Part shown: in pieces, positions 15,659-36,371 of the stretch | Position numbering within the stretch: position 1 is the first letter of the stretch | Layout of the letters: every line of letters begins with the position of its first letter | Source of the DNA: a phage | DNA: 64,000 bases | Strand: one strand, 5' to 3' | Sequence record: PX930851.1 | Position numbers and translations under genes: made by a program | Notes under the pieces: generated by a model | What the model saw: the letters and a program-made list of their open reading frames with translations, nothing else | What the model was told of the DNA's origin: nothing | Database searches by the model: none

Positions 15659-15855
15659 TTTGAATGCTCTATAATTAATTTTAAGGCTTCTTCGCTGACA
15701 AAAATTTCGTCAGGACCTTCTTCTATAACCCAATCAACCATACGAAGTTGATTAGTTAAGAGCTCACATACGAGCTCCTTGTTATAATCTTTAAATAGCT
15801 GGTCAATACGTTTCTTATGGGCTTTCTTAAGCTGACGCTTATTTAAACGAGCCAT
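15655..15855 (-). CDS. hypothetical small protein
   Basis: 66 aa. Confidence 0.45.
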   Translation of the reverse strand: MARLNKRQLKKAHKKRIDQLFKDYNKELVCELLTNQLRMVDWVIEEGPDEIFVSEEALKLIIEHSK

Positions 15856-16373
15856 TAATAACCTCGGTCTTGACGAGCGAAGTTTTCAGCATTTTTCAGG
15901 TAATAAAGTTTAAAGATTTCTTCAGCTGACATTCCAAGAGCAATAAATTTATTCATGAAAAAGTGAAATTGGTCAATCAGTTCAAATTTAATTTCAAGCT
16001 GATCTTCGGGAGATAAATCTTGAATTTTCTTGGATTGCATTTCAGAATAACGTTTCTTCCAAGGTTTCCATACAGCAGAAGCTTCTTTTTCACCATTACT
16101 CATACCACCAAGAGAAGTATATAGTTCGCGAGTTTCATCTGCGATATAATCGTCTTGGTTTCGCAACCAAGCAAGAACTTCTCCTGCGGTTTCAAGTGAA
16201 TCAGGATGACGATTTGTTTCTGGTTTATCATTAGCCAAACGAATCTGTAAATGCCGCTGCATATCAAGCATAACCTGCAGTGGGTCAATATTGTGCATAA
16301 TATTCTCAGCATATGCACGATTTGCTTTATCAACACCTTCGATCAAATGAGCACATTCATTAAAGTAAGCCAT
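15855..16373 (-). CDS. 56: dCTPase gp56 (dCTP pyrophosphatase, MazG-like)
   Basis: 172 aa from ATG at 16373 (MAYFNECAHLIEG...); SD GAAAGGA; track ORF extends further upstream. Confidence 0.75.
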   Translation of the reverse strand: MAYFNECAHLIEGVDKANRAYAENIMHNIDPLQVMLDMQRHLQIRLANDKPETNRHPDSLETAGEVLAWLRNQDDYIADETRELYTSLGGMSNGEKEASAVWKPWKKRYSEMQSKKIQDLSPEDQLEIKFELIDQFHFFMNKFIALGMSAEEIFKLYYLKNAENFARQDRGY

Positions 16374-21121: not shown

Positions 21122-21484
21122 TTAAAAGAATTTAAACTTTTTCTTTGACCTTTTATTAAATGCATCTTGTAGTTGCATTGTAATACATTTTTCTACATGA
21201 GGAGCTAACTCAGCTTTTCTTTCTTGGTCAAGAACAGCAAAGTCCATTACGACTTTTCCATCAACCCAATCTAATTTTGTCACATACACAATGTGTGTAG
21301 AACCATCTTCTAGTTTAATGACAATCTCCTGGATAACATTTTCCATGGCAGATTTAATTATCTTAAGAGATTCATTAAAAAGACGTTCTTTTCTTTCTTC
21401 TTCCCCCTCCGAAGAGGGGGATTCATCGATAATTTCTAGATCTAAATCTAAATCATCTTTATTCATTAAATTCTTCCATATCAC
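21122..21484 (-). CDS. 40: gp40 (head vertex assembly protein), start uncertain
   Basis: 120 aa acidic ORF between uvsX and 41; 5' end overlaps uvsX. Confidence 0.55.
   Translation of the reverse strand: MIWKNLMNKDDLDLDLEIIDESPSSEGEEERKERLFNESLKIIKSAMENVIQEIVIKLEDGSTHIVYVTKLDWVDGKVVMDFAVLDQERKAELAPHVEKCITMQLQDAFNKRSKKKFKFF
21403..21420 (-). other. UUCG-type hairpin inside gene 40 coding sequence
   Basis: ccccctccgaagaggggg, 7-bp GC stem. Confidence 0.4.
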
Positions 21485-22640
21485 TTAACTGCTCGAGGTC
21501 AGTTTCTAAATCAGCAGCTGATTTACTTTTACTTTCTGGAGATTTAAATTTTTCAACCTTTGAGTTAATTAATTCATCAACTTCAGCTTCAACAATTTCA
21601 TTACTATCAATAGCACCTAACTGATAAGCGCGTTTAATAGCATCTCGGAATGGTTGATGCTTAAATAAAGGACCCCAGAATGTAGTGCAGTTGGTATCTT
21701 TTGCACGCCAAGATTTTTCTTCGCGAATCATCTCACCGGTTTCTTCATCAAGAAATTCACGAGCATACCAACCATTCTTAGGTTTTACTACAAATCCTAA
21801 TTCTAGAGCCATATCTAACAATCCAGAATAAGGATCGATACCACCGTCAAATTTAACATCAATAAAGAATTTACTTTTTTCTTTAACGGTACGAGATTTT
21901 TCTACATTTAGAACAAATTGATACCCCTGAAGATCAGAACCATCTTTAATCTGACGCTTACCGATAATGAATACGGTATCAGCCGAATACATTACGCCTG
22001 TACCACCTGTCATCACGGTTTTACTAAACATTTCAATTGTTTCAATTGTATGGTTAACCGCAACGCATGGAATATTTTTAATGCTAAAATAAGGAGTAAC
22101 AATACGAAATAATGACTTCAGTGATTTAGCACGAGTCATATCTGCCACAGATTTTTCATTCAAGGCGTCTTCCGTTTCTTTCTTAGAAGCCATATTACCG
22201 ATTGAGTCGATGAATACAATAACCTTTTCACCACGCTCAATAGCTTCAAGCTGATTCACCATATCAATTTTCAGCTGTTCAACTGACTGAATCGGCGTAT
22301 GAATTACTCGTTCCGGGTCAACTCCCATGGATCGCAAATAAGCTGGAGTAATACCAAATTCGCTATCATAGAATAGACAAACCGCGTCAGGATATTTGTT
22401 CAAATATGCCGCAACCATAGTCAAAGACATATTTGATTTAAAGTGTTTAGAAGGCCCTGCGAAAATAGTTAAACCAGACTGCATGCCGCCATCAATCGCA
22501 CCAGAAATAGCAATATTAAGCATTGGAATTTTTGTACGAATTACATCCTTTTCATTAAAGAATTTAGATGTAGTCAGTTCAGCAGTCATTTTAGAAGTGG
22601 AAGCTTTAATCAAACGGGATTTTAAATCTGCAATAGACAT
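21459..22640 (-). CDS. uvsX: UvsX recombinase (RecA-like)
   Basis: 393 aa; Walker A GPSKHFKSN. Confidence 0.9.
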   Translation of the reverse strand: MSIADLKSRLIKASTSKMTAELTTSKFFNEKDVIRTKIPMLNIAISGAIDGGMQSGLTIFAGPSKHFKSNMSLTMVAAYLNKYPDAVCLFYDSEFGITPAYLRSMGVDPERVIHTPIQSVEQLKIDMVNQLEAIERGEKVIVFIDSIGNMASKKETEDALNEKSVADMTRAKSLKSLFRIVTPYFSIKNIPCVAVNHTIETIEMFSKTVMTGGTGVMYSADTVFIIGKRQIKDGSDLQGYQFVLNVEKSRTVKEKSKFFIDVKFDGGIDPYSGLLDMALELGFVVKPKNGWYAREFLDEETGEMIREEKSWRAKDTNCTTFWGPLFKHQPFRDAIKRAYQLGAIDSNEIVEAEVDELINSKVEKFKSPESKSKSAADLETDLEQLSDMEEFNE

Positions 22641-22693
22641 TCATTTTTTCCATAGGCATCATTATATTTTCCTCACTGGTTAAAGATAGAGTA

Positions 22694-22719
22694 ATTATAA
22701 CACAATAAATTTAGGCATT
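22694..22719 (-). promoter_or_regulatory. possible middle promoter for uvsX
   Basis: minus strand TGCCTAA (MotA-box-like), 11 nt, TGTTATAAT. Confidence 0.3.
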
Positions 22720-23566
22720 AATCAACTGCTATTGGATGAATAGCATTAAACTTATGAAATGCTTCTGATTTTTCTTTACGCGAAACGCACATGCGAAGAA
22801 CCTTTAATGGCTCGTCTTCTTCACCCAACGATTTTCGTTTTTCAATATTCGACGTTTTCCAACGAGCTTGCTCTGGAAACTCTCTATTGATTTGCTCAAG
22901 CGCTCTATTATGTTTAGAATTACTACGAATTGAACTACACCCACCAGGAGCTTGCGCTTTTCCAGATACAACCAGATATTTGAACAAGGCCAAATGCGGA
23001 TAACCTTGATTAATTAAATTGAGAAATGCATACATATCTTCACATAAATCAATTTTTCCATACCCAATTTGTTCTGTCGTAAGTTTTCCGAGGTCATACC
23101 ATGTATTCGTGAATCCATATGAATTTTCACGGTAATTACCCCAAGATGAAGTAATTTTAAAAATTGGTAAACGAGCATGACCATGATAATACCCGCAATC
23201 CATGGCATCTTCAACGTATTGAATCAATTCATAGAACTGTTCACGGGTTAATTGATTGACTTTATCTACACAACGACGGTCATCTCTTTTTCGCATTGAA
23301 CTCATACGAATAGTAGTATCATCGTCAATCATCCAGATTCGTTGACCTGCATACATATCAGTAATTGCTTTACGAGTACCGGCAATTCCGTTTACATCAT
23401 CAGGAATAGTTATAATTTTAGCTCTAGACCCATAGGCATCATAATAAGCTTTTTCTTCATGTTCACGTACTACGATATGAGGTTCATAATCAGTCGGAAA
23501 CATATCAAGGGCAGAAACTGCCCCTACACGTTGATAGCTCGGAATTACGAATTGAATCATTTCCAC
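22718..23566 (-). CDS. glycosyltransferase with DxD motif at the beta-gt locus (possibly T2/T6-type beta-alpha-glucosyltransferase)
   Basis: 282 aa; WMIDDDTTI; between uvsX and 42; shorter than T4 beta-gt. Confidence 0.45.
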   Translation of the reverse strand: MEMIQFVIPSYQRVGAVSALDMFPTDYEPHIVVREHEEKAYYDAYGSRAKIITIPDDVNGIAGTRKAITDMYAGQRIWMIDDDTTIRMSSMRKRDDRRCVDKVNQLTREQFYELIQYVEDAMDCGYYHGHARLPIFKITSSWGNYRENSYGFTNTWYDLGKLTTEQIGYGKIDLCEDMYAFLNLINQGYPHLALFKYLVVSGKAQAPGGCSSIRSNSKHNRALEQINREFPEQARWKTSNIEKRKSLGEEDEPLKVLRMCVSRKEKSEAFHKFNAIHPIAVD

Positions 23567-24297
23567 TCACCGTTATAATCTTTTTTCATAATATGAGTTT
23601 CGCCAGTATTCCACCAATGATCAACCAAGTAAAAATGACGAGAATATACATGAAGACTTCCAACATTCCATATAATAGAACCTGCTTTATACTGACGAGT
23701 TGAATCGCCTGCATTCAAATCAGATACTAATTTATCTAATACGTATTTTTGCCATGCATAATCATTACGGAATCCGAAGACCACGTCATTTGAGCGCATG
23801 CTTACTACTGCATTGACTTTCTTATCACGAATCAGGTACTGTACTGTATTAGTACACATGAAATCTGACATACCGTCTTTATTATAGTCAAACTGCATAG
23901 ATGGACGAGTATAAATCATGATACCACGTCGAGAATCAGGATTTTGACCAAGTTCAGCTAAACACATGTCATACTGGGCATAGTTATCTTCTGACCAGAT
24001 AGCCCAACCATAATTCGAGTTAATTTCACCTTTAGAAGATGCTACTTGTTGCCAAATCTTTGGTGTTTCGCCTGGAATATCTTTAACAAACAAGCTCTTA
24101 GATTTATACCATTCAAGTTCACGCTGAATGTATTCATCATTGAGAGCGCCAAAAATAAACGGTTCATCTGCTACAAATGATGCGCCAATAATTTCAATAG
24201 TTTTAACACCGGTTTTATCAACTACGAAATCTTTTTCTTTTAATGCAAGCCCCAAATGAAGACGGATTTCTTCAACTGTCATAGAGTCACTAATCAT
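23557..24297 (-). CDS. 42: dCMP hydroxymethylase gp42
   Basis: 246 aa; position upstream of imm. Confidence 0.9.
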   Translation of the reverse strand: MISDSMTVEEIRLHLGLALKEKDFVVDKTGVKTIEIIGASFVADEPFIFGALNDEYIQRELEWYKSKSLFVKDIPGETPKIWQQVASSKGEINSNYGWAIWSEDNYAQYDMCLAELGQNPDSRRGIMIYTRPSMQFDYNKDGMSDFMCTNTVQYLIRDKKVNAVVSMRSNDVVFGFRNDYAWQKYVLDKLVSDLNAGDSTRQYKAGSIIWNVGSLHVYSRHFYLVDHWWNTGETHIMKKDYNGEWK

Positions 24298-24304
24298 TTA
24301 AACC

Positions 24305-24454
24305 TCAATTGATACATTCATATTTAACTTGTAACAGTAATAAGCTCCAACCTAAAATAATAGTTGGAATCATAAGAGGAACCGTTACACTATAGTATAT
24401 ACTTATTATAATCATCAAGATTAAAAGCAACACTGCTATAATTTTGCTTTTCAT
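24305..24454 (-). CDS. small hydrophobic ORF, not in track
   Basis: 49 aa MKSKIIAVLLLILMIIISIYY...; ATGA overlap with imm stop. Confidence 0.3.
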   Translation of the reverse strand: MKSKIIAVLLLILMIIISIYYSVTVPLMIPTIILGWSLLLLQVKYECIN

Positions 24455-24702
24455 TCCTTCTCTCTGATGATAATTACCTGATTTGGCTGTGCAGACTTTT
24501 TAGTTTCACCCGCAATTGACCAAATAAATGTAATAAACCAACCAATAATTGACCAGTTAAACAGTAAAGACGTGAAAAAGATTCCTACTGTCGATTTTGA
24601 CCCACGCATCAAGGCGATGAACCATGGAAGCATGTATATAATAATAGCCAACACACCTGAAACTAAAACCATAAAAATTGAACCTGCTACTAAAGTTTCC
24701 AT
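24451..24702 (-). CDS. imm: Imm superinfection immunity membrane protein
   Basis: 83 aa, two hydrophobic segments; position between 42 and 43. Confidence 0.75.
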   Translation of the reverse strand: METLVAGSIFMVLVSGVLAIIIYMLPWFIALMRGSKSTVGIFFTSLLFNWSIIGWFITFIWSIAGETKKSAQPNQVIIIREKE

Positions 24703-24709
24703 GTTTTCC

Positions 24710-25090
24710 TCACTTAGTTAAATTTTTTACGCATGAATTATAAGAATTCACTACATACTCCATCGGAGCATTTTTACCGGTACGCCATTGGTAATTATTA
24801 GCCCAATTTGCCCAAAGCTCGGCGCAGTAATTTTCAATTTTTTCTTCGCGTGTAATTACATCTGAATTACGATATGCTTGAGCAGATTCATCTGGACGAA
24901 TAGCTTCGTCAAAATTCGCCTGCATTTGTTCTACTGTTTGCTTTGGAGCTTCTTTATAACACTTGACATTAGGATTATAAAATTTGCTTGAACAGTTTAC
25001 AATTTTTCCTGCATCAGACTGATTTACTACCGGTCCTTGAGCTACACAACCAGTAAGACCTAATGCAATAACCAAAATAGCGATTTTCAT
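24710..25090 (-). CDS. lipoprotein (imm.1 position)
   Basis: 126 aa; signal peptide with lipobox LTGC. Confidence 0.5.
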   Translation of the reverse strand: MKIAILVIALGLTGCVAQGPVVNQSDAGKIVNCSSKFYNPNVKCYKEAPKQTVEQMQANFDEAIRPDESAQAYRNSDVITREEKIENYCAELWANWANNYQWRTGKNAPMEYVVNSYNSCVKNLTK

Positions 25091-25100
25091 AATAATTTCC

Positions 25101-25349
25101 TCAAATGCAAGTAGTAATTACTCCAGTAGTGCTTATGCAGGTATTACCCATTTGCACACCTAAAGATCCATTTGTATTCACATGAAGATTATCATCAATT
25201 TTAACTGATATTTTACCATTAGTGTGAATAACGGTGCTAGATTCAATCACAGGTTGAGTATCATTTTCAACACTAACAAATGGAACTGCTGCTAATGCAA
25301 CTAAACAAACTGCTAAGCATCCCATAACAATTTTCATTTTATTCTCCAA
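25101..25349 (-). CDS. small secreted protein
   Basis: 82 aa with N-terminal signal-like segment. Confidence 0.45.
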   Translation of the reverse strand: MENKMKIVMGCLAVCLVALAAVPFVSVENDTQPVIESSTVIHTNGKISVKIDDNLHVNTNGSLGVQMGNTCISTTGVITTCI

Positions 25350-25371
25350 ATCCGTATTAGTTGATAGTTGT

Positions 25372-25401
25372 ATAGTACCATGGAAGAACAGTCTTGTAAA
25401 C
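25372..25401 (-). promoter_or_regulatory. T4-type early promoter
   Basis: minus strand gtttac-N18-tactat with A/T-rich upstream tract. Confidence 0.5.
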
Positions 25402-25487
25402 AGTTTTGTGAAAATTTTTTAGGGAATTCTAAAGGTCCAGAACCATCTGTTTTTCATAAGTATAGATTTATATTACTTGTATGAAAA

Positions 25488-25505
25488 AGGGACCCGGAGG
25501 TCCCT
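25488..25505 (-). terminator. intrinsic terminator after gene 43
   Basis: agggacccggaggtccct hairpin followed on minus RNA by UUUUU. Confidence 0.6.
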
Positions 25506-25517
25506 AGATTTATTCTA

Positions 25518-28214
25518 TCAGCCAAACAGGAAGTCTAACGAAGCTTTTTCTTCATAGTCCATACCAGCCGATTCACACATACCCGCAAGCGGTTTAACAA
25601 ACGATTTTTGGAACAAAGTTGAGTAGTCAATCCAAGACAGTACGTCAGAACGAATTTCTTTTGGAAGTTCTGTTCCCGACGGCCAAGCAATGCACTTGTC
25701 ACCAAATGGATTTCCTTCACGCAATGGAAGGACCATTACTTTATTTCCATCCAAAATTGGAGCTACACCCAGACCACTAACAGCTCGACGATAAGTTAGC
25801 ACACCACGAATATGGAACGGACATTTAAATCCTGGCCAACCTTTATCATCATATTTCGCTATATCGTTCGCAGTTTTTACTTCAGCAATAACTTTATAGT
25901 CAAGTTGACGATATTCTTTCTCGAAGTTCTTGTAATATTCTTGGACAGACTCTTCACCTTCCTGAAGAATACGACGAATACTTTCTTCGAGAGCTTCTTG
26001 GACCGCTTTAGGCGTTGAACTCTGCTGAGTTTCCATACCCATGATTTTTAGATGTGGTTCAGCAAATCGCTTATCTTCCATATCATAAACGTTCAGAGCA
26101 TAACGCTTTTTCGCTTTCCAAAATCCACCAACGCCCTTTGAACCAAGTGGAGGGCAAGAAATAGCTTCACGGTCCATATGCATCAGATGCTCGCGGTTAT
26201 TCATATAATCACATAACTCACGATATGCAACATCAATCATAGGTTCCATCTTTTTCTTACCGAACTGATTCATGAATTCAACTAAATCGTTCTGCTCTTT
26301 GAATCGGTCAAGACCAACTTTTTCAATAACTTTATCTACACAAACATATACCGAATCAGTATCACCTGCTGCGATGAAATCTTCACCATTAGTTCCGCAC
26401 ACTTTATTCAGATACTCATTAATTTTACGAGCAATCCACTGAATACCAACTTGACCAAAAATTGTGATAGCAGTAGCATTTCGCAAATCATAGTAACGGA
26501 AATGAATATTACCAAGAGCACCGTAAAGGCTGTTAATAAGAATTTTACGGTTCAGCTGATTTGTATTAGCAAGTGTAGCCGCTTTTTCACATTCCTCAAT
26601 CAGACTATTGAGAACAGATTCAGTATAATTCGATAGTTCATTTAAGAAATCATCACTGAACTTAACATATCGTTCAACTTCAGGTTTAGTTGAACAAGAC
26701 CCTGCGCCTTTCATAATAATCTTTTTAATAGCTTCGGCATTCATTTCTTCAGCGAACATTTTCTTTTTCCAATCTTTACGCTGGAAAAATACTTTAGCGA
26801 TTTCCTTTGGAATGATACCTTCTTGATGCTTATCATACATCCATCCATTCGGAGAACAAGAATATTCATCACTCGGTTTAGGAGCTGTTCCTGCGATATA
26901 TTCATGAATTGGATGAACTTTAAACTGACCACGAATAGTCTCAGGACTAATGTTAACCTGACGAATAATGCTAGGATACAGAGACGTCAAGTCAAAACTC
27001 ATAATATATCGACGAGCAATTGGTTTAGGTTCAAATACAAATGCACCTGGAAAACTTTGTTTAACGTGCGAACCTTGTTGAGGAATAACCTTATGTTCAC
27101 CTTTCAATGAGTTAAAAATAATAGCATCCCAGGTTTTAATAGGACTCATTACACCAGAAAAAGGCATTTTAGCGTAATAAGACATACTTAAAACTAGATC
27201 GATAAACCCGCGAATTTTATCAATTGCTTGAACTGATTCTACGTCAATGATGTTATAACTAATATATCGTTGATGATTAGTCTCACGAAGTTTATTAATA
27301 GGACCGTCGTATGGTAATTTGCCCTTTTTAGTTTCATGCTGAGCAACTGATTCCAAAGAGAATGACGGCAAATTAGTAAATGCGAATTTCTTATACAAAT
27401 CTAAATAATCAAGAATAGATACGCCATCAATAGAATAAATTTCTTTGCTACCGTACATATTTTGAATTAGTTTAGATTTTACTCGACCGATTGGAGAGAA
27501 ACGTTTCATACTGCGTTCACCGAGAACCATTTTAACGCGATTCATGATATACGGAACGTCAAATCCCTCAATATTCCAACCAGTAAAAATAGCAGGTCGT
27601 TTCTGTTCCCAAAGATTGATATATTCCATGAGCATATCGCGCTCATTATCGAATGGCATATAAATTACTCGGTCAAGAATTTCTTGAGGAACTTCATCAC
27701 CACCTTCACAGTCAAGCTTAGCAGCTAACTTTGCATCCCATTTTGATACTGAACCGTACATTGAATTCAAAAGGTCGAAAACATAAAAACGATCATCAAT
27801 TGAATCGTAATGAGTGATAGCATCAATTTCATATTCAGCTTTCATTGGGTCAGGAAATTTATCACCAGTAACCTCAATGTCACAGTTAGCTACACGAACA
27901 AATTTTCGGTCATAAACAATTTCTGAACCATATGTATCACTGATATAAGCGAGTTTAAAATCGTTCATACCGAGAGCTTCGAGACCGATGTCTTCCATTC
28001 GTTTCATCCAATCTCGAGCATCTTTCATTGATGGAAATTTTTGAGGAGCGCAGTTTTTACCATAAATGTCTTTGTACTTTGACTCTTCCTTACAATGTCT
28101 AAACATAGTTGGAAGATATTCTACTTCACGAGTACGTTCCTTTCCGTTTTCATCAATATAACGTTCAACAATGTTATTTCCGACTGTTTCAATAGAGATA
28201 TAAAATTCTTTCAT
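25518..28214 (-). CDS. 43: DNA polymerase gp43 (family B)
   Basis: 898 aa; exo motif ANCDIEV, polymerase motif AAGDTDSVYV. Confidence 0.95.
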   Translation of the reverse strand: MKEFYISIETVGNNIVERYIDENGKERTREVEYLPTMFRHCKEESKYKDIYGKNCAPQKFPSMKDARDWMKRMEDIGLEALGMNDFKLAYISDTYGSEIVYDRKFVRVANCDIEVTGDKFPDPMKAEYEIDAITHYDSIDDRFYVFDLLNSMYGSVSKWDAKLAAKLDCEGGDEVPQEILDRVIYMPFDNERDMLMEYINLWEQKRPAIFTGWNIEGFDVPYIMNRVKMVLGERSMKRFSPIGRVKSKLIQNMYGSKEIYSIDGVSILDYLDLYKKFAFTNLPSFSLESVAQHETKKGKLPYDGPINKLRETNHQRYISYNIIDVESVQAIDKIRGFIDLVLSMSYYAKMPFSGVMSPIKTWDAIIFNSLKGEHKVIPQQGSHVKQSFPGAFVFEPKPIARRYIMSFDLTSLYPSIIRQVNISPETIRGQFKVHPIHEYIAGTAPKPSDEYSCSPNGWMYDKHQEGIIPKEIAKVFFQRKDWKKKMFAEEMNAEAIKKIIMKGAGSCSTKPEVERYVKFSDDFLNELSNYTESVLNSLIEECEKAATLANTNQLNRKILINSLYGALGNIHFRYYDLRNATAITIFGQVGIQWIARKINEYLNKVCGTNGEDFIAAGDTDSVYVCVDKVIEKVGLDRFKEQNDLVEFMNQFGKKKMEPMIDVAYRELCDYMNNREHLMHMDREAISCPPLGSKGVGGFWKAKKRYALNVYDMEDKRFAEPHLKIMGMETQQSSTPKAVQEALEESIRRILQEGEESVQEYYKNFEKEYRQLDYKVIAEVKTANDIAKYDDKGWPGFKCPFHIRGVLTYRRAVSGLGVAPILDGNKVMVLPLREGNPFGDKCIAWPSGTELPKEIRSDVLSWIDYSTLFQKSFVKPLAGMCESAGMDYEEKASLDFLFG

Positions 28215-35152: not shown

Positions 35153-35170
35153 AAAGGGCCGAAGCCCTTT
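35153..35170 (-). terminator. UUCG-tetraloop hairpin
   Basis: aaagggccgaagcccttt at alpha-gt stop. Confidence 0.45.
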
Positions 35171-36371
35171 ATTTTGTAATAATGTCAAACTGTTCTTTAA
35201 AGCAGAAGCTTGAATCTTGATGCTGATACAAAAATTCATAAGCTTTTTCACGTTCACGGTCATAAAGAGCTCGGTCAGATGACAGTTCTTTAATACGTTC
35301 AAATGTTGATTCCATGTCATTTTCATCAAACCAAACGATACCGCTATCATGAGAAATTAATGGAGTATTATCAACACGGAATTTTAAATTTTCGCCCGTA
35401 GATTTCCAAAATACCGGAATTGTTCCACATGCACCAAGCTCGAGATGAGTGTATTCTAAAGAACGTTGTAGATATTTTTTATCCAACTTACTCAACTGAT
35501 AACCAAAACCGGATTTACTCATACGTTCAAGCATTTCGCTATTTACATAACGGTCAAGAATTTGCGTTGGCAAATTAGGAGCAATTTTAATTTGGTCTAC
35601 TTGATGAAGACGATAATACTCATATGGAATTCCTTTTTCTTTAATAGGAATGAACGCAGGAGAACGTTCCAGACCTTCCATAATAGTACTTAGCCCAGCA
35701 GGTTTAAGATGTTTTTCGTGAAAATCAAACATCTGATAAAAACCTTTCCATGTAGTCGTACGACCAATCCAACGGTTGATATTCATGTTAATTTCAGAAA
35801 CATCTTTCCAGTAGGTTGATCGAACCTTCGCAATATCCATCGGAGGCTGAAAGTTATATACTGTCGGTGCTTCTTCAATATCATCAAACAGAGAAACAGT
35901 TTCTGGATACCACTCTTTCATCAGAACTTTATTAAAATCACCATTATCGGAATGGCTAAAAATAACATCAGCTCGACGAACAGTTTCTTCTAATCCCAAA
36001 TTTCGACGCAAAGAAAGAGAAGAATGGTCATGCTGATAAACTACAACACGAACCGAAGGTTTAATGTTATCAATAATTTTTTTATAGTTATTAATAGTGT
36101 CTTCTTCAACTGAAGTAGCAGGAACTGAATTGATAATTAGAATATCACAATCATTTACCAGCTTAAGTGTTTTATCATATTCTTTTGCCAATAAAACCGG
36201 AATTGAAAATGATTTATAATCATGCGCGCAATTACGAGTAAATGATTTATCTTTAGCATAAACCAAAGTTACTTCATGACCATTTTTAATAAACCAATCA
36301 CGTTGCTCAAGAGAAAATTTAGTTACACCGCAACCTTCAAGACCTCGAGCCATAAAAATACATACTTTCAT
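35169..36371 (-). CDS. a-gt: alpha-glucosyltransferase (hmC DNA)
   Basis: 400 aa; position between 55 region and 47. Confidence 0.85.
   Translation of the reverse strand: MKVCIFMARGLEGCGVTKFSLEQRDWFIKNGHEVTLVYAKDKSFTRNCAHDYKSFSIPVLLAKEYDKTLKLVNDCDILIINSVPATSVEEDTINNYKKIIDNIKPSVRVVVYQHDHSSLSLRRNLGLEETVRRADVIFSHSDNGDFNKVLMKEWYPETVSLFDDIEEAPTVYNFQPPMDIAKVRSTYWKDVSEINMNINRWIGRTTTWKGFYQMFDFHEKHLKPAGLSTIMEGLERSPAFIPIKEKGIPYEYYRLHQVDQIKIAPNLPTQILDRYVNSEMLERMSKSGFGYQLSKLDKKYLQRSLEYTHLELGACGTIPVFWKSTGENLKFRVDNTPLISHDSGIVWFDENDMESTFERIKELSSDRALYDREREKAYEFLYQHQDSSFCFKEQFDIITK

Follow-up and report, generated by a model that had tools for sequence, protein, structure and literature searches.

Phages T2 and T6 encode a beta-alpha-glucosyltransferase (ba-gt) which adds a beta-1,6-linked glucose to alpha-glucosyl-hydroxymethylcytosine (alpha-glucosyl-hmC), giving gentiobiosyl-hmC, at 5% in T2 and 72% in T6 (PMC6024577; PMC13216743). 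Homologues of both T4 a-gt and T2 ba-gt have been tabulated in 12 RB phages, including RB14 (PMC6024577). [quoted passage not shown] Gentiobiosyl-hmC made up 40–67% and beta-glucosyl-hmC was found in neither group (PMC13390438). Solitary TAGT homologues, accompanied by neither an alpha- nor a beta-GT, were reported in 288 of 753 phage genomes (NAR 2026), and some members of the family must therefore use another acceptor.

The second glucose matters for host defence. T6 without ba-gt has alpha-glucosyl-hmC alone in its DNA and shows increased sensitivity to the Brig1 glycosylase, which does not degrade wild-type T6 DNA (PMC11078745), and the BapA deglucosylase frees glucose from the DNA of T6 lacking ba-gt but not from that of wild-type T6 (bioRxiv 10.64898/2026.02.25.707755). 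Gentiobiosyl-hmC has been reported as a target of GmrSD too (PMC13216743), and BrxU cut all of the modifications tested (PMC13390438).

The ba-gt gene and its locus

The window, by which we mean the whole 64-kb stretch of DNA analysed, contains an uninterrupted minus-strand open reading frame of 282 codons between uvsX and gene 42 (22718..23566, opening with a GTG at 23566), as reported in the first-pass annotation, although the start is better placed two codons downstream. The features of the locus are:

22718..23560, minus strand: ba-gt (g-gt, TAGT; beta-glucosyl-HMC-alpha-glucosyltransferase), 280 aa from the ATG
21459..22640, minus strand: uvsX recombinase, the downstream flank of ba-gt, in synteny with RB14, T2 and T6
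23557..24297, minus strand: gene 42 (dCMP hydroxymethylase, for the hmC precursor), 97% identity to T4 gp42, with a syntenic annotation in RB14

Translation probably begins at the ATG at 23560. This codon and the stop codon of gene 42 overlap in the sequence ATGA, and a Shine-Dalgarno-like GGTGA lies 6 nt ahead of it; the GTG has no such spacing. An 843-nt gene from the equivalent ATG is annotated in the records of RB14, T2, AdolfPortmann and KRT47, and the GTG start was dropped on the grounds of the Shine-Dalgarno spacing, the ATGA overlap and the annotation of all these relatives. Translation of ba-gt is probably coupled to that of gene 42.

This is a real, conserved gene. PHROG 842, "beta-glucosyl-HMC-alpha-glucosyltransferase", matched residues 2–277 with E=2e-89, which rules out a chance open reading frame, and the reading frame carries no nonsense or frameshift lesion. 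The Pfam family PF20691 (TET-associated glycosyltransferase, TAGT) matched with 38.9 bits against a gathering threshold of 27.5, with residues 5–209 aligned to positions 2–205 of the 205 in the profile. The protein was 100% identical to RB14 YP_002854377 and, over 280 aa, shared 99% identity with its counterparts at this locus in T2 (AP018813) and T6 (AP018814), and in a four-sequence alignment with RB14, T2 and T6 it had the majority residue at every column. The gene is therefore a T2/T6-type ba-gt, an enzyme which has been known and named for years, and nothing new is suggested here. A PDB sequence search with ba-gt gave two chance matches only (E>1), with no solved relative detectable by sequence, and NCBIfam contained no model for either ba-gt or the alpha-glucosyltransferase (alpha-gt) described below.

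The gene order 43 / imm.1 / imm / 42.1 / 42 / ba-gt / uvsX / 40 / 41 is that of RB14, and T2 and T6 are arranged likewise. The surrounding 7 kb had 98–98.6% identity to Tequatrovirus phages, among them Sf23, wV7 and JK1. The GC content across the locus (approximately 0.35–0.38) is the same as that of its surroundings, so there is no sign of a recent foreign insertion at ba-gt. A scan of 22400..25600 for promoters and terminators gave 17 promoter-like sites where chance alone would give 13.9±3.1, and is no guide to expression.

The same terminator-like scan found a 9-bp GC-rich stem-loop, GGGGCAG-TTT-CTGCCCT (23506..23526, minus strand), in codons 12–18 at the 5' coding end of ba-gt; it is unchanged in all six of the phage sequences aligned and may be a product of chance or represent structure in the mRNA. 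Immediately after gene 43, at 25488..25505, comes a GC-rich hairpin with a perfect 7-bp stem and, on the minus strand, a T-run behind it; this resembles a terminator separating gene 43 from the small-gene cluster downstream. Between imm.1 and gene 43 there is also an 82-aa open reading frame (25101..25349, minus strand) with a hydrophobic, signal-peptide-like N-terminus. In T2 the matching gap holds a 252-nt CDS labelled "tail tape measure protein", apparently a mislabel, and in RB14, T4 and T6 no gene is annotated there, the T6 record marking an "attL".

In T4 the equivalent locus holds, in place of ba-gt, a 351-aa beta-gt, as previously noted for this position, together with the homing endonuclease gene segA. 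A BLASTP comparison of the window ba-gt with T4 beta-gt gave nothing better than E=2.2 over 8 residues, and by tblastn T4 beta-gt had no match within the 64-kb window. This lack of similarity ruled out a shortened or diverged beta-gt. The segA gene is absent between uvsX and ba-gt, and T4 segA was unmatched anywhere in the window.

Although the locus had first been presented as a departure from T4, it is T4 which is the exception: ba-gt was found at full length in 475 phage records at 90–99% nucleotide identity (megablast), whereas only 29 records, mostly T4 stocks and RB55/RB59, carried a T4-type beta-gt. The records with ba-gt have mostly Escherichia or Shigella phage names, with fewer from Yersinia, Salmonella, Citrobacter and others, and many of those listed are annotated as beta-alpha-glucosyltransferase. 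Within the genus alpha-gt together with ba-gt is the usual combination, and the alpha and beta pair of T4 is a rarity, in agreement with a published survey (NAR 2026).

Labels in public records are confused in both directions. The T4-type beta-gt of RB55 (KM607002) and RB59 (KM607003) is labelled "beta-glucosyl-HMC-alpha-glucosyl-transferase", and in several phages (including KRT47, MN781580, and AR1, AP011113) ba-gt itself goes under "b-gt" or "putative beta-glucosyltransferase". Gene 42 is named "thymidylate synthase" by RefSeq.

Predicted fold and conserved residues

In a structure model, ba-gt was predicted to adopt a GT-A (nucleotide-diphospho-sugar transferase) fold of GT2-like type, and the test for a two-domain GT-B fold was negative; confidence in the model was moderate, with pLDDT below 50 at residues 131–150, 203–211 and 244–251 and low values also at the last three residues. 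Conservation was assessed over 152 family representatives, with counts given out of 153 (151 aligned for R11). The family set came from a full profile search, seeded with the 11 homologues which a word-indexed search had given. The principal motifs are:

23528..23530, minus strand: R11 codon, part of the N-terminal motif IPSYQR (similar to "PxYN" of GT2 enzymes); Arg in the window, His in T2
23318..23326, minus strand: D79-D80-D81 codons, a DxD-type motif within WMIDDDTTI
23036..23041, minus strand: E174-D175 codons, the "ED" motif

The DxD motif noted at first pass is thus present, and comes after the fourth strand (E74–79) in the Rossmann-like half of the model. Its residues are conserved in 151 (D79), 153 (D80) and 146 (D81) of 153 sequences, and all 151 aligned representatives have Arg at position 11. 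D175 is invariant (153/153) and E174 less so (121/153), while R63 is kept in 143/153. Further conserved positions are G186 (152/153), G206 (152/153), G207 (153/153) and R212 (150/153). The window ba-gt retains all of the nearly invariant residues, namely R11, D79–D81, D175, G206–G207 and R212.

The arrangement of IPSYQR, DDD and ED is typical of inverting GT-A enzymes, and the roles of individual residues are proposed by analogy. D79–D81 probably binds the metal and the diphosphate of the UDP-sugar, R11 and R63 are putative contacts to the nucleotide sugar, and D175, by analogy with GT2 enzymes, is the putative catalytic base. The enzyme is most likely an inverting transferase, a mechanism consistent with a beta-linked product made from UDP-alpha-glucose.

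The glucosylation pathway and its expected product

Two further genes of the pathway are found in the window:

35169..36371, minus strand: alpha-gt (hmC alpha-glucosyltransferase), 400 aa, making the alpha-glucosyl-hmC that ba-gt extends
15855..16373, minus strand: gene 56 (dCTPase/dUTPase, which excludes unmodified dCTP from phage DNA), found by tblastn with T4 gp56

The alpha-gt had been described as T4-like. That an alpha-gt lies here is borne out, and 504 phage records match it, those listed being annotated as alpha-glucosyltransferase; it is, however, better called T2-type, since its identity is 99% to T2 and 91% to T4 (92% to T6). T4 gp56 matched at 16373..15858 with 69% identity (E=3e-76). 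With gene 42, gene 56, alpha-gt and ba-gt all present, the whole pathway to gentiobiosyl-hmC lies in the window.

The 69% identity of gene 56 to its T4 counterpart may be set against the 99% of neighbouring gene 61 and the 97% of gene 42. In T4, segF adjoins gene 56, a region where marker exclusion between T4 and T2 is mediated by SegF. T4 segA, segF, mobB and dam, all four of which T4 has in the corresponding regions, had no tblastn match in the 64-kb window. Using the missing dam to place this phage in the group with approximately 1:2 hmC to gentiobiosyl-hmC, rather than in the 1:2:2 group, was dropped because the association is too loose.

We consider it very probable that this phage makes gentiobiosyl-hmC with a functional T2/T6-type ba-gt, given the sequence identity, synteny, pathway genes, fold class and motif conservation, while the chemistry and the defence phenotypes come from published work; the assignment covers the 64-kb window, and the rest of the genome could hold a beta-gt or another transferase. 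The phage DNA would be replicated with 5-hydroxymethylcytosine, dependent on gene 42 and gene 56, alpha-gt would add an alpha-linked glucose to most hmC residues, and ba-gt would attach a further glucose, taken from UDP-glucose, to the first by a beta-1,6 bond. In the resulting DNA a large part of the hmC would be expected as gentiobiosyl-hmC, alongside unmodified hmC and alpha-glucosyl-hmC, and beta-glucosyl-hmC would be absent. The level of modification is predicted rather than read from the gene, as the presence of ba-gt does not fix it: T2 has a 99% identical gene yet only approximately 5% gentiobiosyl-hmC.

The T2 and T6 records themselves contain unusual alleles. R11H (CGT to CAT) and P251S are found in all eight records which are 100% identical to the T2 query gene (AP018813, L003:4283-5125), these being five deposits named T2, a RefSeq copy, the query record itself and phage SV76. 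The T6 record AP018814 (L004:4135-4974) and its RefSeq copy NC_054907 have lost one Asp of the DDD motif in frame. A second T6 record, MH550421 (L008:28-30), has the DDD motif but carries a CAG-to-TAG amber at codon 10, with the depositor's CDS beginning at Met20. The T6 records therefore disagree, and either laboratory stocks have diverged or one record is in error. The window differs from T6 in having none of Y40N, D55G, R106H, the lost Asp (AP018814) or the amber at codon 10 (MH550421), and within the aligned first 40 codons none of the T2 and T6 changes was found in the window, RB14, AdolfPortmann or KRT47.

R11H might underlie the low gentiobiosylation of T2. A tentative proposal, which we rate as possible but rather doubtful, is that the window carries the wild-type ba-gt allele and the classical laboratory phages do not; R11H would then be a hypomorph, explaining the approximately 5% of T2 against the 40–72% of T6 and natural isolates. 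Were this so, the present phage would be heavily gentiobiosylated despite its T2-type alpha-gt. The T2 and T6 reference sequences may give a poor picture of the natural enzyme. We met no published explanation of the difference between T2 and T6, in literature which was not searched specifically for one.

The low level in T2 also bears on how active the enzyme is in this phage. A ba-gt which was weak or inactive here, as apparently in T2, would leave DNA that is essentially mono-alpha-glucosylated, and the 99% identity of the two ba-gt genes and of the two alpha-gt genes points that way. Against it, the window has neither R11H nor P251S nor the lesions of the T6 records, its reading frame is intact, every nearly invariant family residue is present, the majority residue is kept at all columns of the alignment with RB14, T2 and T6, and natural isolates with alpha-GT and TAGT show 40–67% gentiobiosyl-hmC, so that we judge a weak enzyme very unlikely. 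The location of ba-gt at the T4 beta-gt locus, and the genomes with a solitary TAGT (288 of 753; NAR 2026), would suit an enzyme which glucosylates bare hmC directly, as a functional stand-in for T4 beta-gt, rather than extending alpha-glucosyl-hmC. The window protein is, however, 99–100% identical to enzymes whose product is gentiobiosyl-hmC, T6 without ba-gt keeps alpha-glucosyl-hmC only, and natural isolates with both genes have no beta-glucosyl-hmC and leave approximately one third of their hmC unglucosylated. Were ba-gt to act on bare hmC, none of it would persist, and direct glucosylation of hmC is the least probable of these readings, with hardly any likelihood in our estimation.

Gentiobiosylation by a functional ba-gt, the reading we prefer, would change which host defences can attack the DNA. 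The proposed effect on defences against glycosylated DNA agrees with the published change in sensitivity to Brig1 and BapA on loss of ba-gt. Published work predicts reduced attack by Brig1 and resistance of the modified sites to BapA, with continued sensitivity to GmrSD/BrxU-type enzymes and, via the remaining bare hmC, to Brig3. Such predictions could help in the selection of phages for therapy or for defence-system screens. The phage falls into the Tequatrovirus majority, the class which makes gentiobiosyl-hmC DNA. The finding matters as annotation only and raises no fresh question, the comparison of alleles with T2 and T6 being its one forward-looking point.

Comparison with known glucosyltransferases

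A second glycosylation different from that of T4, of the T2/T6 gentiobiosyl type, had been suggested for this phage, and is supported by the 99% identity of ba-gt to T2 and T6 and 100% to RB14, by the co-occurrence of alpha-gt and by the lack of relationship to T4 beta-gt. The alignments proposed for checking it have been run and gave 99% identity to the T2/T6 enzymes; full-length identity to T4 beta-gt, which would have spoken against the suggestion, was absent (E=2.2).

The closest described system is the T2/T6 ba-gt (g-gt, ggt; UniProt Q06717/Q06718 as cited in PMC6024577; RB14 YP_002854377), which has the same length of 280 aa as the window protein and shares its position between gene 42 and uvsX, its partner genes and its motifs; apart from the T2 and T6 alleles described above, the two do not differ in any substantial way. 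The wider TAGT family (PF20691) has a GT-A fold and is a sister group to GT2. The window ba-gt differs from that family in its setting, as it sits in the T-even hmC pathway with gene 42 and has no TET/JBP dioxygenase context, and in its acceptor, which according to the literature is a sugar already on the DNA and not a base. T4 beta-gt (GT-B, 351 aa, PDB 1JG7 as cited in PMC13216743) shares with the window ba-gt the locus beside gene 42 and, from the literature, the sugar donor and the beta stereochemistry of the new bond. The two differ in fold class, T4 beta-gt being a two-domain GT-B enzyme and the window ba-gt a predicted GT-A one, and in acceptor, which is bare hmC for T4 beta-gt and alpha-glucosyl-hmC for ba-gt.
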